Shown piece by piece: positions 36,510-42,697 of a DNA stretch of 64,000 nucleotides. Each line of letters opens with the position of its first letter. Positions within the stretch are counted from its first letter, which is position 1. Under the pieces are notes generated by a model. The model was not told the origin of the DNA and did no database searches. It saw only the letters and a list, made by a program, of their open reading frames with translations. Where the stretch lies: assembly GCF_013122565.1 (NCBI RefSeq), contig NZ_CP053258.1. One strand, 5' to 3'. The translations under genes were made by a program, and so were the position numbers. The stretch is from Escherichia coli. GTDB lineage: Bacteria; Pseudomonadota; Gammaproteobacteria; Enterobacterales; Enterobacteriaceae.

Positions 36510-37835
36510 ATGAGCAAAGTAACTCCCCAGCCGAAAATCGGCTTTGTTTCCCTTGGCTGTCCGAAAAACCTTGTCGATTCAGAGCGTATTCTCACCGAAC
36601 TCCGCACTGAAGGTTATGACGTGGTACCGAGCTATGACGATGCGGACATGGTGATCGTCAACACCTGCGGCTTTATTGACAGCGCGGTACAAGAATCACT
36701 GGAAGCCATTGGTGAAGCGTTGAATGAAAACGGCAAGGTAATTGTGACCGGGTGTCTGGGGGCAAAAGAAGATCAGATCCGCGAAGTCCACCCGAAAGTG
36801 CTGGAAATCACCGGGCCTCATAGCTATGAGCAGGTTCTGGAGCACGTTCATCACTACGTGCCAAAACCGAAACACAACCCGTTCCTGAGCCTGGTGCCAG
36901 AACAAGGTGTCAAACTGACGCCGCGTCATTATGCTTATCTGAAAATTTCTGAAGGCTGTAATCACCGCTGCACCTTCTGCATTATTCCGTCTATGCGCGG
37001 CGATCTGGTGAGCCGTCCGATTGGCGAAGTGTTAAGTGAAGCGAAACGTCTGGTAGATGCTGGCGTTAAAGAGATTCTGGTGATCTCGCAGGATACTTCC
37101 GCCTATGGCGTTGATGTTAAACATCGTACTGGCTTCCACAACGGCGAGCCGGTAAAAACCAGCATGGTCAGCCTGTGCGAACAGTTATCGAAACTGGGGA
37201 TCTGGACACGTCTGCACTACGTTTACCCTTATCCGCATGTGGACGACGTCATCCCACTGATGGCAGAAGGCAAAATCCTGCCGTATCTGGACATTCCGTT
37301 GCAGCACGCCAGCCCGCGCATTCTCAAACTGATGAAGCGTCCGGGTTCTGTAGATCGCCAACTGGCGCGCATCAAACAGTGGCGCGAAATCTGCCCGGAA
37401 CTGACCCTACGCTCAACCTTTATTGTCGGCTTCCCTGGCGAGACAGAAGAAGATTTCCAGATGCTACTCGACTTCCTGAAAGAAGCGCGTCTGGATCGCG
37501 TTGGCTGCTTTAAATACAGCCCGGTTGAAGGTGCAGACGCCAATGCCCTGCCTGACCAGGTTCCGGAAGAAGTGAAAGAAGAACGCTGGAACCGTTTCAT
37601 GCAGCTGCAGCAGCAGATTTCCGCCGAGCGCCTGCAAGAGAAAGTGGGCCGTGAAATTCTGGTGATTATCGACGAAGTGGACGAAGAAGGCGCTATTGGT
37701 CGCAGCATGGCAGATGCACCGGAAATCGACGGCGCGGTTTATCTCAATGGTGAAACCAACGTTAAGCCGGGTGATATCCTGCGTGTGAAAGTCGAGCACG
37801 CCGATGAGTACGATTTGTGGGGTAGCCGGGTTTAA
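36510..37835 (+). CDS. rimO: Ribosomal protein S12 methylthiotransferase RimO (radical SAM)
   Basis: 441 aa; CxxxCxxC in ...[14 protein letters not shown]... Confidence 0.95.
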
Positions 37836-38019
37836 TTAATCTAAAGGCAGATCTAACAAGGATATTGTTCTTCGATCTGCCTCTACTACCCTTCCCGATG
37901 TCCTACCCTTACGCACAAAATCCCCTGACGCATAAATCGAGAAAAATGAATCGTACTCGAGGCAACTCTCACTTTTTCACACCAAATTAAAGTTTTGATC
38001 GCAATTACTTGAAATAAGC

Positions 38020-38045
38020 GTAATGGTTACTATAGTAAACATTAC
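38020..38045. promoter_or_regulatory. Imperfect palindrome overlapping a -10-like TATAGT upstream of the toxin-antitoxin pair (autoregulatory operator candidate)
   Basis: gtaatggttactatagtaaacattac. Confidence 0.4.
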
Positions 38046-38060
38046 CACAAGGATGGATGT

Positions 38061-38447
38061 ATGGGTGTGTATAAGGCAAGGCGATTCAGCCAAAGCACGA
38101 AAAAACTTGGTATTCACGATAAAGTTCTCATGGCTGCCGCTGAAGAAGTGATGCAAGGCATATGGGAGGCTGATTTAGGTAGCGGTGTCATCAAAAAACG
38201 GTTACCCCTCCAACAAGGAAAGAGTGGTGGAGCCAGAACAATTATCTTTTTTAAATCAGCAAATCATGTGTTTTTTTATGATGGTTGGTCCAAGAGTGGT
38301 CTAAGCAGTAAAGGAACCAAAGAAATCGAAGATGATGAACTGGCAGCCTACAAAAAAATGGCAAATGCATTTCTGGCCTTTAGCAATAAGCAAATAGAGG
38401 ATTTGATCGAAACTGGCTTCTTGATTGAGGTGAAAAATGAGCGATAA
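38061..38447 (+). CDS. Type II toxin, RelE/ParE superfamily (HigB-2-like), toxin-first arrangement
   Basis: 128 aa; ...GKSGGARTIIFFKSANHVFFYDGWSKS... pattern typical of this toxin family. Confidence 0.65.
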   Translation: MGVYKARRFSQSTKKLGIHDKVLMAAAEEVMQGIWEADLGSGVIKKRLPLQQGKSGGARTIIFFKSANHVFFYDGWSKSGLSSKGTKEIEDDELAAYKKMANAFLAFSNKQIEDLIETGFLIEVKNER

Positions 38448-38766
38448 ATTACAAATGATGCTGGAAGATGCAAAGGAACTGAATGCATTGGGCCTGATGT
38501 CTGATAGTGAGGTTGATGCCATTGCCGTCATGGTCAAAGCCCGTGAAGTCAGCGCCCGTATAGCCAAAGTCAAATCAATGACGGGTGAAGAGATCAAAGC
38601 CATCCGCACCCGATACGGCATGTCACAATCCGTGCTGGCACATACAATGGGAATGTCAAAAGAAAGTGTCTCGAAATGGGAACGTAATGAAATAAAACCG
38701 AGCGGCCCGGCACTACGTATTTTGAATACATTGGCAATAAAAGGGCCGGAAGTTTTTGCAAAGTAA
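38437..38766 (+). CDS. HTH (Xre/NadS-like) antitoxin
   Basis: 109 aa; C-terminal HTH ...YGMSQSVLAHTMGMSKESVSKWERNE...; 11-bp overlap with toxin gene. Confidence 0.65.
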   Translation: MSDKLQMMLEDAKELNALGLMSDSEVDAIAVMVKAREVSARIAKVKSMTGEEIKAIRTRYGMSQSVLAHTMGMSKESVSKWERNEIKPSGPALRILNTLAIKGPEVFAK

Positions 38767-38835
38767 AATGTTTGCAAATGATTTACCACATTCATTAGTA
38801 CCCCTTGATTCAGGGGTACTAACACTATTCTAATT

Positions 38836-40164
38836 CTACTGCCAGCTAATCTGCGCCCTGCCGTTTTTCTTACTCTTATACAGCCGCTCATCTGCCAGCA
38901 TTTTCAAGCGTTCGACGGTAGTACATTCATTTGAATGCGCTATACCGATACTGGTGCTTAAATTAATGCTTCCCACCTGGAAATGAACAATTTCTTTTAG
39001 AATCGATAGCAACTCTTCCAGCGTTCCACCCGTATAAATCACCGCAAATTCGTCACCGCCGAAGCGGTAGACTTTACCTTTATCTACGGGGATCTGTGAT
39101 TTAAGGATTTTCACCACTTTCATCAACACTTCATCGCCCAGCAAATGACCGAAGGTGTCGTTAATGTTTTTGAATTTATCGACGTCAAACAGGCACAAAT
39201 ATCCGCCTTTTTCCGGCAGGGCTTTTAAATCTTCGTCAAAGGATTTTCTGCCCATTGCTTTGGTCAGGTCGTCCAGGAACGCTGAGTTATACAGACTGTA
39301 GAGTTTTTTGACATCGGCAGCCGAAAAGAAAAGCCCGCCATCCAGTACACGTTCAAAATGGTTATTAATGATGGCTTCTTTCTCCACAATACCACGATTA
39401 ATCACTCTGCGTACCATATAGAGGCAACTGGTACCCGATATCACTGCCACCAATGCGGCAAAGAAAATAATCAATGTACAGACCCGCAAATAAACATCTT
39501 TTTTATACGCAAATACGTACAATCCTGTCGGCAAATAGGCGAAGTGCTCCATCGCTTCCGAAACGGTGAAGATGGCGTTTTTAGCATTATATTCATCACC
39601 GGTCACCGGTTTACCGTTCTTAAACAGAGAGAACATCAGGTTTTCGCTATCCATCGCCAGCGATTTTGACAGTAAAGAAAAACGCTCCAGACCAAGCAAA
39701 AATATCAGACTACGATTGTGAGTTACCGGATAGAGGTAATAGACGAAGGTTTTACCGTCAAAAGAGATAAACCCTGTATTTTTGACATGTCGATACTTCA
39801 CAACCTGCATAATATCTGCACAATAATTTTTCTCGAACTCCTTTACCTGAATACATTCGTCACTGGAAATCAGATAAGGACCGACATCGTACAAATAAGA
39901 GGGTGAAACCGAGTCGGCGTAAGCTGTGCGTAAGCCAACCAACAGCTGTTCCTCCGTGGGATTTAGCGTGTTGATAAGATCAATTGCCACGCTACGCCGA
40001 TATTCAGCAATATTTGCCACCGCAAAAGCAGTATCAATAACGGACTGTTTCAGGCTATACACCCGTTCCTTTACCATTTGAGTGTAGATCCCGCAGGCAA
40101 CTGCTGAAATCATGATAAAAATCAGCAGACTGACTGTAAGTACGAACTTATTGATTCTGGACAT
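38836..40164 (-). CDS. dgcI: Diguanylate cyclase DgcI (YliF)
   Basis: 442 aa; GGDEF motif in ...[12 protein letters not shown]... Confidence 0.9.
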
Positions 40165-40171
40165 ACGTAAA

Positions 40172-42520
40172 CTACTCTTTTACTAATTTTCCACTTTTAT
40201 CCCAGGCGGAGAATGGCATGGGTTTCTGGTACAGATACCCCTGAGCCTGAACACATCCTAATTTGATTAATTCGCGCGCAACGTCTTCGCTCTCTACGCC
40301 TTCCGCAATCACCGGGATCCGGTTATAGCGTGCCAGGTCGAAAATAATGCGCACAATTTTTCCCGCAGTACCGAAAATATCGCCGGTAAATTGCGAGTCC
40401 ACCTTTATGCTGTCTGGATTAATTTCATAAAAACGTTTCAGGTTTGACAAACCGGTGCCAAAGTCATCAATCGATATCCGTACCCCTTGTTTACGCAGTT
40501 GTTCAATATTGAGATAAAAATGTTCATTAATTCGCTCGATCACGGTTTCAGTGATCTCAACACAGAGGCTGTTCGCCTTCAGGCCATTTTCTTTCATGAT
40601 GGTGGTAAAACGCTCATGAAAGTGCGGTTCGTTTAACTGCCAGGGCGAAACATTAATATGCAGTAAGAAATCATCCTTCAGCGATGCACGCTGACTAAAA
40701 TGTCTGAATTCACCCATTGCCGTTTTAATAATCTGATAACCCAGCTCATTGATAAACCCGATATCTTCAGCAATGGTAATGAACTTCAGCGGTGAAATGA
40801 TCCCCCGCTCCGCAGACACCCAACGGCACAACGCCTCCGCGCCCAGAATGGCGCGGGTGTTAATATCAACGATCGGTTGATAGACGAGGAATAGTTCGCC
40901 AATTTCCATTGCATGGCGAATATTACGCGCAATCCAGATATTCTCTTCTATTTCGTTGAGTTTCGCGTCATCACAGAAAATAAACTCGGAGAACATATGG
41001 TCACGGATACTGGAAATCGCCAGTTTCAGTTTTTCTGCGTAACTCCAGGCGTTTTCCCCCTGCAAAGGTTCACAAATGGCAGACTTATGGATGCGCAGAT
41101 TGCGGTAGCCAAAGCTGCTGTCAAAATCGTTTACCATCGCTATTTTACGGGTAAATGTCTGTACATTTTCCCGACACAGAAGTAAATAGAGATCGGCATT
41201 GAATGTCACGATATCGCAGCATTGTGCATATTTCTCGGCAATTCGCTGACACAATTTCCTGACGATTTTATTACGTTCATCAACACCAAACACCGCTTCC
41301 ACGGCTTCCAGACCACACAGTTTGATGATCCCCACAGCCAGATACTGATTATTGTTGGACTCAATAATCGCCATATTTTTAATAAAACCACTTTCCTGAT
41401 CGTAAGAGATCAGTGAGAGCAATTTATTTGACCGTTCAATTTCGGCATCTTTCATTTCCGCGATCGAATTTTTGATGCTGATAATCTCTTTCGCATCGCC
41501 TTCGCGAATTTTCAGAGCCTCGATCTGATCCGTTGAGTCAGGCAAAAACGCCAGCGTATTAACCAGCTCTGTCATTTCAGAAAATTGCCGACGGAACACA
41601 CGAGTGGTCATTAAATAAACCACCAGCAATACGATAATAATGAACGCAAACGGCAGATAAAAAAGTTTATCTGAGGCGTTCAATAAATTACCACCCGGAT
41701 AATAAAAATAGATTTCGAATAATGCGTTGTTTGGCACCGCTGATGTTTTTTCGATATATTTAGTATCGACAGAATCAATAATATTATAATTACCTTCGCT
41801 ATTATAAATAATCAGTTTTTCACGAGCGAGTTGATTCTTGGCAATGATCTCATGGCCTTGTTTCAAAAATAGAACTTCATCATTAGCGCTGATTTGATCA
41901 AGATACTCGTTCAGATATCGCCAGTTTAAATCGACATGAATTTTATCCACCGCTAACAAATCGTGATCTTTGCCGTTGATGCGTAGCGTAAAAGAGATAC
42001 ATTTTTTACCCGGACGATCAAAGCAATTGTAGGCCGGATTCCAGCTGTTGTTAGAGTCATCTGAAGCCACCGACCACGGTCGTTTCGATGGGTTAAAATC
42101 GGCAAAAATAACCCGCCCTGACTCGTCGACAAGCGGTCCATTTACTTGTTCCTGATGATAAACAACGATTTTATCGTTCGCCCTCCGCGAAAAGAGATAA
42201 TATTTATTATCATCAAGTACCAGTCCCACCGAGTCTAAAAATGGCATCATTTCCATTTTCAGGATCACAGCGCGTTGAATCTCCTCTGTATTTTTTAATA
42301 AATACAGTGAGTCCTTTAATGTCAGGGCCGAACGTTCAATATCTTTAAAGAAATAGCCAACGTTTTTCTGAATAAGTTCAAAGCGGCTATCGGCACGTTT
42401 TACCGCGCGTTCCGATACCAGTTGATAGTTAATGATGAAAAAAAGGCCAATAAATGACAGTGCTGCCAATAAAAATAAAATTATCAGCCTTATCTTTATC
42501 TTTTCGTATAAACTCAGCAT
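40172..42520 (-). CDS. pdeI: c-di-GMP phosphodiesterase PdeI (YliE), EAL domain
   Basis: Trimmed to [18 protein letters not shown]... (782 aa); EAL motif present. Confidence 0.9.
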
Positions 42521-42697
42521 GTTAATACATTTAACAAAATAACTGTCTGAACGCTGTGCCGCTGCAAAAACAGTCCCTTGCTGCGGCTTTTTAACCAAAT
42601 TACCCGATTCTACAAAATCAGCAGAAAGTTACAACACTTGCTTAGGGCAATAATTTCCTGTGAGGTGATTACTCTTTCAAGCAATATTCAAACGTAA

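Follow-up and report, generated by a model that had tools for sequence, protein, structure and literature searches.

The window analysed here (the whole stretch of Escherichia coli DNA, 64 kb in length) carries two + strand open reading frames in the 1,000-bp interval between rimO and dgcI. They encode a putative toxin and antitoxin, and the gene order around them in E. coli is iaaA-gsiABCD-pdeI-dgcI-[TA]-rimO-bssR-yliI, where [TA] stands for the pair. The locus contains the following features:

36510-37835, + strand: rimO, flanking the pair upstream
37841-38836, unstranded: variable segment, about 1 kb in the TA-bearing allele and about 41 unrelated bases in the K-12-type allele
37845-37881, + strand: hairpin 3' of rimO with stem AGGCAGATC / GATCTGCCT and no U-run (inverted repeat I1)
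38009-38036, + strand: candidate sigma-70-type promoter, 10 of 12 consensus positions (promoter scan)
38020-38045, unstranded: 26-bp palindrome GTAATGGTTACTA/TAGTAAACATTAC, candidate operator (inverted repeat I7)
38049-38053, + strand: Shine-Dalgarno-like AAGGA, 7 nt 5' of the toxin ATG, read from the sequence
38061-38447, + strand: toxin gene, 128 aa, HigB-2 family, PF06296 (RefSeq WP_000539521.1)
38437-38766, + strand: antitoxin gene, 109 aa, Xre-type HTH (RefSeq WP_001280945.1)
38795-38822, unstranded: inverted repeat I11, with perfectly matched 11-bp arms and a 6-nt loop, in the gap that separates the antitoxin stop from that of the convergent dgcI
38836-40164, - strand: dgcI, convergent with the pair and flanking it downstream

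The toxin gene precedes the antitoxin gene in one operon, and the same order was found in every related locus examined. The two reading frames share 11 nt (ATGAGCGATAA), and this overlap suggests that their translation is coupled. RefSeq annotates the same two coding sequences in genomes of identical sequence, naming WP_000539521.1 a "type II toxin-antitoxin system RelE/ParE family toxin" and WP_001280945.1 a "helix-turn-helix domain-containing protein".

The toxin matches the Pfam family PF06296 ("RelE") with an E-value of 7.9e-33 and 113.7 bits, its residues 1-124 covering the model from end to end (1-120 of 120). This is the sole significant Pfam family in the toxin scan, and all 71 toxin homologues that were found either carry PF06296 or are fragments. 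HigB-2 of Vibrio cholerae is a member of the same family (PMC11980606). A pairwise phmmer search of the toxin against PDB sequences returned nothing and missed HigB-2. A profile built from 20 homologues recovered the HigB-2 chains at an E-value of 9.6e-5, and one built from 64 homologues did so at 3.6e-8 (toxin residues 11-97 against HigB-2 residues 12-102). The fold points the same way. In a Foldseek search of the PDB with the AlphaFold2 model of the toxin (pLDDT 87.1, pTM 0.82), ranks 1 to 6 were all HigB2 chains (5jaa, 5ja8, 5ja9), the best of them at an E-value of 4.2e-4, a probability of 1.00 and TM-scores of 0.49/0.59; other RelE-superfamily toxins ranked after them. The structural likeness to HigB2 is moderate, with TM-scores of 0.5-0.6 at 13-16% identity. 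No NCBIfam model and no PADLOC model matched the toxin, and among the PADLOC models the antitoxin gave generic HTH matches only.

The active site of HigB2 was mapped by mutagenesis to Arg51, Arg64, Tyr82 and Lys84, with Lys49 also listed (PMC5416850; PMC10098735). In the 20-homologue profile alignment, HigB-2 residues K49, R51, R64, Y82 and K84 align to K45, R47, R59, W76 and K78 of the toxin, so that four of the five are identical and the fifth is a conservative change from Tyr to Trp. Among the 64 homologues no column other than K45 and R59 is invariant, conservation reaches at least 90% at R47 and K78, and position 76 holds an aromatic residue (W, F or Y) throughout. K45, R47, R59, W76 and K78 are thus the predicted active-site residues. 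Taken together, the sequence profiles and the structural model support the placement of the toxin in the RelE/ParE superfamily as a HigB-2-like protein.

The antitoxin consists of a helical N-terminal segment (residues ~1-45) followed by a C-terminal Xre-type HTH domain (residues ~47-107), and HTH_3 was matched at an E-value of 3e-9 over residues 53-94. In matches to the PDB sequence of HigA-2, residues 47-106 align to HigA-2 38-96, so that the HTH occupies equivalent places in the two proteins. The AlphaFold2 model (pLDDT 90) contains helices at 4-17 and 23-43 and then a five-helix HTH domain, the N-terminus being modelled as confident helices rather than as a disordered stretch. Its best fold match is the C-terminal domain of HigA2 (TM 0.80, rmsd 1.4 Å, 28% identity), and the next matches are full-length HigA2 chains from the toxin and operator complexes. 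The N-terminal segment of about 45 residues carries a conserved ELNALG motif. The part of V. cholerae HigA2 that neutralises the toxin is its N-terminal segment (PMC5416850), and by analogy the N-terminal segment of the E. coli antitoxin would be the part that binds the toxin. The C-terminal half of the antitoxin also matches the C-terminal part of MqsA-family models, more weakly and below their cut-offs (Pfam MqsA_antitoxin, E-value 5e-4); the TIGR03830 score is 47.1 bits, where 61.8 is the cut-off, over profile positions 51-122 only.

Upstream of the toxin gene, the promoter candidate is made up of a -35 element TTGAAA (38009-38014), a 16-nt spacer and a -10 element TATAGT (38031-38036). Situated between the -35 and across the -10 is the palindrome, whose arms (38020-38032 and 38033-38045) are complementary at 12 of 13 positions with zero spacer. 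In Markov simulations 0.025 26-bp palindromes of such quality were expected in the 64-kb window, and this was the only one observed. The promoter and the palindrome are also conserved between genera. In five related loci of other Enterobacteriaceae the -10 does not vary and the -35 is mostly retained, and the palindrome core TTACTATAGTAA together with the outer GT...TTAC positions is invariant in six loci of different genera (alignment A3), whereas the DNA farther upstream and downstream of the operon is unalignable between genera. The palindrome is therefore put forward as a candidate operator of the TA operon, as read from its sequence and position.

Two further structures border the operon. 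The hairpin 3' of rimO folds as RNA at -16.2 kcal/mol (z -4.4) and may serve as the end or a stabiliser of the rimO transcript. The inverted repeat between the antitoxin and dgcI stops folds with a z-score of -3.2 on the + strand and -4.5 on the - strand, which makes it a candidate two-way transcript-end hairpin. An Rfam scan of positions 37600-39000 gave no match.

Most of what a preliminary description of this DNA had proposed about the pair was borne out by these results. It had described two overlapping genes (here the reading frames at 38061-38447 and 38437-38766, in agreement with RefSeq), and preceding them an imperfect palindrome overlapping a -10-like element, which corresponds to the 12/13 arms with TATAGT inside. 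It had also assigned the products to a HigB-2-like RelE/ParE-superfamily toxin and an HTH antitoxin. The HMM classification that it suggested as a check gave PF06296 for the toxin and HTH_3 for the antitoxin, and the first assignment is further upheld by the PDB profile and fold matches, the second by the fold match to HigA2.

The closest solved structures for both proteins are those of V. cholerae HigBA-2 (HigB-2, VCA0468, and HigA-2; PDB 5JAA, 5JA8, 5J9I, 8A0X). The two systems share a PF06296 toxin, the toxin-first gene order, an aligned active-site set of Lys, Arg, Arg, aromatic and Lys, and an antitoxin with an extra N-terminal segment in front of a C-terminal Xre HTH. A single inverted repeat lying between the -35 and across the -10, a candidate operator in E. 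coli, is likewise found in both; in V. cholerae the HigA2 HTH dimer binds one inverted repeat that runs from after the -35 over the -10 (PMC11006873). They differ in that identity is only ~13-16% for the toxins and 22-28% for the antitoxins, and in that the E. coli toxin is 18 residues longer than HigB-2, with a two-helix C-terminal region, and has Trp where HigB-2 has Tyr82. The operators also differ (GTAATGGTTACTATAGTAAACATTAC in E. coli, TGTACGC-N5-GCGTACA in V. cholerae). Moreover, the E. coli pair lies in an interval between core genes, unlike V. cholerae HigBA-2, which resides in the superintegron.

A second relative is the ToxP/AntitoxP pair of the Coxiella burnetii plasmid QpH1 (CBUA0028/CBUA0027), a HigBA2-family system that is toxic, inhibits translation, is neutralised by its antitoxin and is autoregulated (PMC10098735). 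Coxiella plasmids appear among the tblastn matches to the E. coli toxin, at a distance of less than 60% identity. ToxP/AntitoxP is plasmid-borne and has a role in plasmid maintenance, while the E. coli pair is chromosomal and is known here from its sequence.

The pair resembles E. coli MqsR/MqsA in that the toxin comes first and the C-terminal HTH of the antitoxin is similar to that of MqsA (fold matches 3GN5 and 3FMY). It differs from this system in that the toxin had no PF15723 match in the Pfam scan; furthermore the antitoxin contains no cysteine and hence lacks the zinc-binding CxxC N-terminal domain of MqsA. With the HigBA systems of plasmid Rts1 and of K-12 (YgjN/YgjM) it shares the inverted gene order, an HTH antitoxin and a RelE-superfamily mRNase toxin, this activity being predicted for the pair described here. 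Rts1-type HigB belongs to PF05015 and K-12 HigB to PF09907 (PMC11980606), and in the Pfam scan the E. coli toxin, unlike these, matched neither family.

A mechanism can be proposed from the example of V. cholerae HigBA2 and of Coxiella ToxP/AntitoxP, for which toxicity and neutralisation were shown experimentally (PMC5416850; PMC10098735). Free toxin would enter the ribosomal A site and cut the mRNA that is being translated. The antitoxin would neutralise it by wrapping its N-terminal segment around it, and an antitoxin dimer, with or without bound toxin, would sit on the palindrome and repress its own operon. If the labile antitoxin were lost or degraded by proteases, the toxin would be freed and growth would stop. 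A literature search found no experiment on the E. coli pair. What it returned was family-level papers and one Prokka-derived gene table of E. coli isolates, which lists "Toxin HigB-2 / Antitoxin HigA-2" (PMC10304320).

The distribution of the pair was then compared across E. coli. Among 5,426 complete genomes, 1,138 contained the interval, and in 1,129 (21%) the pair was located between rimO and dgcI. Carriers include HS and NCTC9066 (both 100% identical to the window), O157:H7 strains including EDL933, O55:H7, and O7:K1 CE10; these carriers represent phylogroups A, E and F. The pair is missing from K-12, BL21(DE3), an O121 strain and a Nissle derivative. In K-12 MG1655 (locus L001) alignment of the region found rimO and dgcI separated by a 46-bp spacer that holds no gene and forms a strong GC-rich hairpin, in line with the statement in the preliminary description that K-12 has no genes there; alignment to K-12 was one of the checks it had put forward. 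Homology to K-12 stops 5 nt past the rimO stop and restarts inside the dgcI stop (CTA here, TTA in K-12), and an 1800-bp query spanning the site is covered by K-12-type genomes over only 45% of its length. No significant similarity was detected between the 46-bp spacer and the 1-kb segment. The two alleles share no sequence from 5 nt past the rimO stop to the dgcI stop. Judged from the alignments, an unrelated 46-bp hairpin spacer takes the place of the segment in K-12, which makes this a replacement and not a simple insertion into a clean empty site.

Divergence within E. coli was measured between the window and strain MS14387. DNA identity is 98.7% for the toxin gene and 98.5% for the antitoxin gene, compared with 98.9% for rimO, 98.9% for yliI, 97.8% for dgcI and 98.0% for pdeI, so that the pair (1.3-1.5% divergence) is on a par with the flanking core genes. 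The codon differences within the pair comprise 10 synonymous and 0 non-synonymous changes. Between rimO and dgcI there is no integrase, transposase or mobility ORF. The sole repeat that spans the boundaries is D17, 9 nt long with 8 of 9 positions matching. The D17 repeat and a MAFFT artefact had suggested a target-site duplication, or a leftover of the dgcI 3' end on the upstream side of the pair, but local alignments did not exceed shuffled controls and the idea was rejected. Some E. coli toxin alleles (P0013) have an in-frame deletion of 24 codons that removes R59 and W76. Separately, a BS-01 locus that appeared decayed and without antitoxin was set aside as an assembly-quality artefact because its sequence is homopolymer-degraded. 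From these comparisons the pair is regarded as an old presence/absence polymorphism rather than an insertion in one strain, and homologous recombination through the conserved flanks probably allows one allele to be exchanged for the other.

Outside E. coli, relatives of the pair with 68-78% identity adjoin gsiD together with rimO or bssR in Kluyvera, in UBA5654 and in metagenome scaffolds. The gene orders at the related loci are:

Enterobacteriaceae MAG UBA5654: yliI-bssR-rimO-X-[TA]-gsiDCBA-iaaA
Metagenome scaffolds L018-L021: dacC-gstB-yliI-bssR-rimO-SUKH-SUKH-HEAT-[TA]-gsiDCBA-iaaA-moeA
Kluyvera sichuanensis: bssR-[TA]-gsiD
Kluyvera georgiana: PTS/mannosidase-[TA]-gsiD

Flanking orthologues in the related loci range from 51% (BssR) to 96% (RimO) amino-acid identity. 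The identity of the pair falls inside this range, which fits a long residence in a variable rimO-gsiD islet of Enterobacteriaceae. Not all of the loci are collinear. A 1.7-kb contig (L017) runs from rimO through a HEAT-repeat gene and a 48-bp piece of the dgcI 3' end (94% identical) to the pair; a look-up of its HEAT-repeat protein led back to this contig only. Relative to E. coli the rimO 3' end is 91% and the toxin 80% identical, and in the window homology to L017 starts at position 37993. Counted from rimO, the dgcI 3' end here comes before the pair and not after it as in E. coli, and by this arrangement at least one rearrangement or independent placement of the pair has occurred. Remnants of HEAT or SUKH genes were sought in the window at 37836-37992, and comparison with L017 and L018 gave nothing significant; one weak, gappy match of the same segment to locus L012 was uninterpretable.

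Close relatives in other named Escherichia species were sought in a single scan of species-representative contigs, which used strict 8-residue patterns and returned 4 loci, none of them from these species. Given the strict patterns and the 4 loci, the scan argues weakly for the absence of the pair from other Escherichia species. A tblastn search with the toxin matched 209 plasmid records from many genera, among which the true plasmid relatives do not exceed 58% identity. Matches to E. coli "plasmids" were discarded, as these records are of megabase scale and hence mislabelled chromosomes. The only phage match to the toxin is 37% identical.

On this evidence the pair is very probably a chromosomal type II HigBA-2 operon and an old resident of the rimO-gsiD islet that is presence/absence polymorphic in E. 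coli. The preliminary description had taken it for a strain-specific insertion in a core interval, and this is the part of it that is not supported, for the pair is carried at the same site by about 21% of complete genomes, has diverged like its flanks, is accompanied by neither mobility genes nor a duplication, and has syntenic relatives. Its absence from K-12 and from 79% of complete genomes also means that the opposite case named there, presence in K-12 and most E. coli, does not hold. A broader version, in which a cassette was acquired horizontally into a core intergenic region, either recently in one strain or in a single event in an ancestral Escherichia, with a Kluyvera-like bacterium or a plasmid as the donor, is unlikely but is the strongest of the competitors. 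In its favour, K-12 and 79% of the genomes are without the pair, and PF06296 pairs are frequent on plasmids of many genera, as the 209 records illustrate. The conserved unit is also compact, extending from the promoter to the antitoxin stop with flanks that do not align between genera; the position of the L017 pair beyond a dgcI 3' remnant implies that the cassette or its neighbours moved; and the one collection scan found no close relative in other Escherichia species. Against acquisition, however, the same site is occupied in 1,129 genomes, including those of HS, O157:H7, O55:H7 and CE10, and the divergence between alleles equals that of rimO, yliI and dgcI. An integrase, a transposase, a flanking direct repeat and remnant homology were all searched for and not found at the site. 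The nearest plasmid relatives are only ~57% identical, whereas the chromosomal relatives at 68-78% lie in a syntenic rimO/bssR-gsiD neighbourhood.

The remaining explanations concern what the operon does. A role mainly in anti-phage abortive infection, instead of stress response or locus stabilisation and with the molecular mechanism unchanged, is improbable. SUKH-type (SMI1/KNR4) and HEAT-repeat genes, which are typical of conflict-system islets, stand beside the pair in other Enterobacteriaceae, but in E. coli no defence genes flank it. Its patchy presence and absence resembles that of defence genes, and toxins of the RelE/ParE superfamily are increasingly tied to defence (PMC11980606), yet the PADLOC models left the toxin unmatched and saw in the antitoxin a generic HTH. 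It is still less likely that the pair has decayed or been domesticated, leaving a remnant in which the toxin is harmless and the HTH protein acts as a transcription factor only, possibly on the biofilm and c-di-GMP genes nearby. Chromosomal TA pairs often decay, the neighbours are bssR, dgcI and pdeI, and the P0013-type deletion of R59 and W76 indicates that the toxin is dispensable in some lineages. In the window, by contrast, neither reading frame is disrupted and none of the predicted catalytic residues is lost, lineages differ by synonymous changes alone in each of the two genes, and conservation of the promoter and candidate operator extends to other genera, the palindrome being the single one of its kind in 64 kb. 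Least probable of all, a long shot, is that the pair is an anciently resident and selectively maintained module, a balanced polymorphism across phylogroups whose repressor or toxin has possibly been co-opted by the host; if this were true, the co-opted function might be, for example, phage defence together with SUKH and HEAT genes, or the regulation of bssR, dgcI and pdeI.

As a chromosomal HigBA-2 operon, the pair is an ordinary, already annotated member of its family; more than 1,000 genomes carry the toxin under the RelE/ParE-family label of the NCBI pipeline. It adds one chromosomal member to the well-studied HigBA-2 family and is of little importance otherwise. What the locus does offer is a fixed site of the core genome where presence and absence of the pair form a clean natural polymorphism, in which K-12 is a natural null strain, so that tests of toxicity, addiction and phage defence would be easy. 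Its synteny in Kluyvera and other Enterobacteriaceae further illustrates that a chromosomal TA pair can persist for a long time at one locus with no visible mobile element.

In K-12 MG1655, the interval between rimO and dgcI that holds the toxin-antitoxin (TA) pair in the window carries a short spacer instead.

K-12 MG1655 locus (L001), 701-746: rimO-dgcI spacer of 46 bp; its GC-rich stem is 13 bp long (-23.5 kcal/mol, z -4.9)

This K-12-type spacer is unrelated to the TA-bearing segment, and the site is not empty. Its hairpin is likely a two-way terminator serving the convergent rimO and dgcI genes. The stop codon of dgcI also differs by allele, being TAG in TA-bearing genomes and TAA in K-12.

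In other Enterobacteriaceae, rimO and the TA pair are separated by two genes of the SMI1/KNR4 (SUKH) family together with a HEAT-repeat gene, all upstream of the pair. These extra genes lie in the following regions:

Metagenome scaffolds L018-L021, 5050-7913
Short contig L017, 164-877
Related locus L012, 6700-7700

The HEAT gene was found at the rimO-dgcI site in none of 5,426 complete E. coli genomes. The rimO-gsiD junction looks like a small variable islet with genes of conflict-system type. Among phage records, the only one with a relative of the toxin was Escherichia phage PhiR12_3 (PV340552.1, 4340-4657; 37% identical, with 86% of the protein covered), where the annotation reads hypothetical proteins.

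L017 comes from an Escherichia-like relative, whose rimO 3' end is 91% identical, and it contains a further feature of the junction.

L017 (Logan contig, SRR26188678), 864-911: 48-bp fragment of the dgcI 3' end, 94% identical, including the stop codon

The fragment is flanked by the HEAT-repeat gene on one side and the TA promoter on the other, which places the dgcI 3' end upstream of the TA pair, whereas in E. coli it is downstream. This arrangement implies either an earlier rearrangement or a truncated dgcI at this locus. The antitoxin gene is incomplete in L017, as the contig stops inside it.

Variation was also found within the toxin gene, which contains two exact copies of a 9-nt direct repeat (AAGAGTGGT) that are 72 nt apart:

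Window 38220-38228: first copy
Window 38292-38300: second copy

A 104-aa toxin variant, P0013, was found on 23 contigs (the largest 396 kb, E. coli by source label). This variant is missing precisely the 24 codons that separate the repeats, which correspond to residues 54-77 and include R59 and W76. P0013 is probably a natural toxin-null allele, produced when the two repeats slipped or recombined.

In E. coli BS-01 (NZ_CP172816.1; L024, 2297-3170), RefSeq annotates a 122-aa toxin without an antitoxin. Homopolymer runs (T, A, C) are abundant at both ends of this locus. Genuine decay was rejected here, since the homopolymer-riddled sequence looks like a low-quality assembly.

In strain 510016 (L002:5337-7000), an IS1A element splits the neighbouring pdeI; the TA interval there is 100% identical to the window. 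The pdeI frame is intact in the window (40172-42598), forming an 808-aa ORF with a TTG start; elsewhere the RefSeq annotation gives 782 aa.

E. coli HS, NCTC9066, 510016 and 2017-03-3CC match window positions 38000-38780 at 100% identity, and O157:H7 does so at 99.7%. On this basis, the window may derive from a strain resembling HS. HS, which carries the pair, belongs to phylogroup A, so presence or absence of the TA pair would vary even within the phylogroup of K-12 itself.
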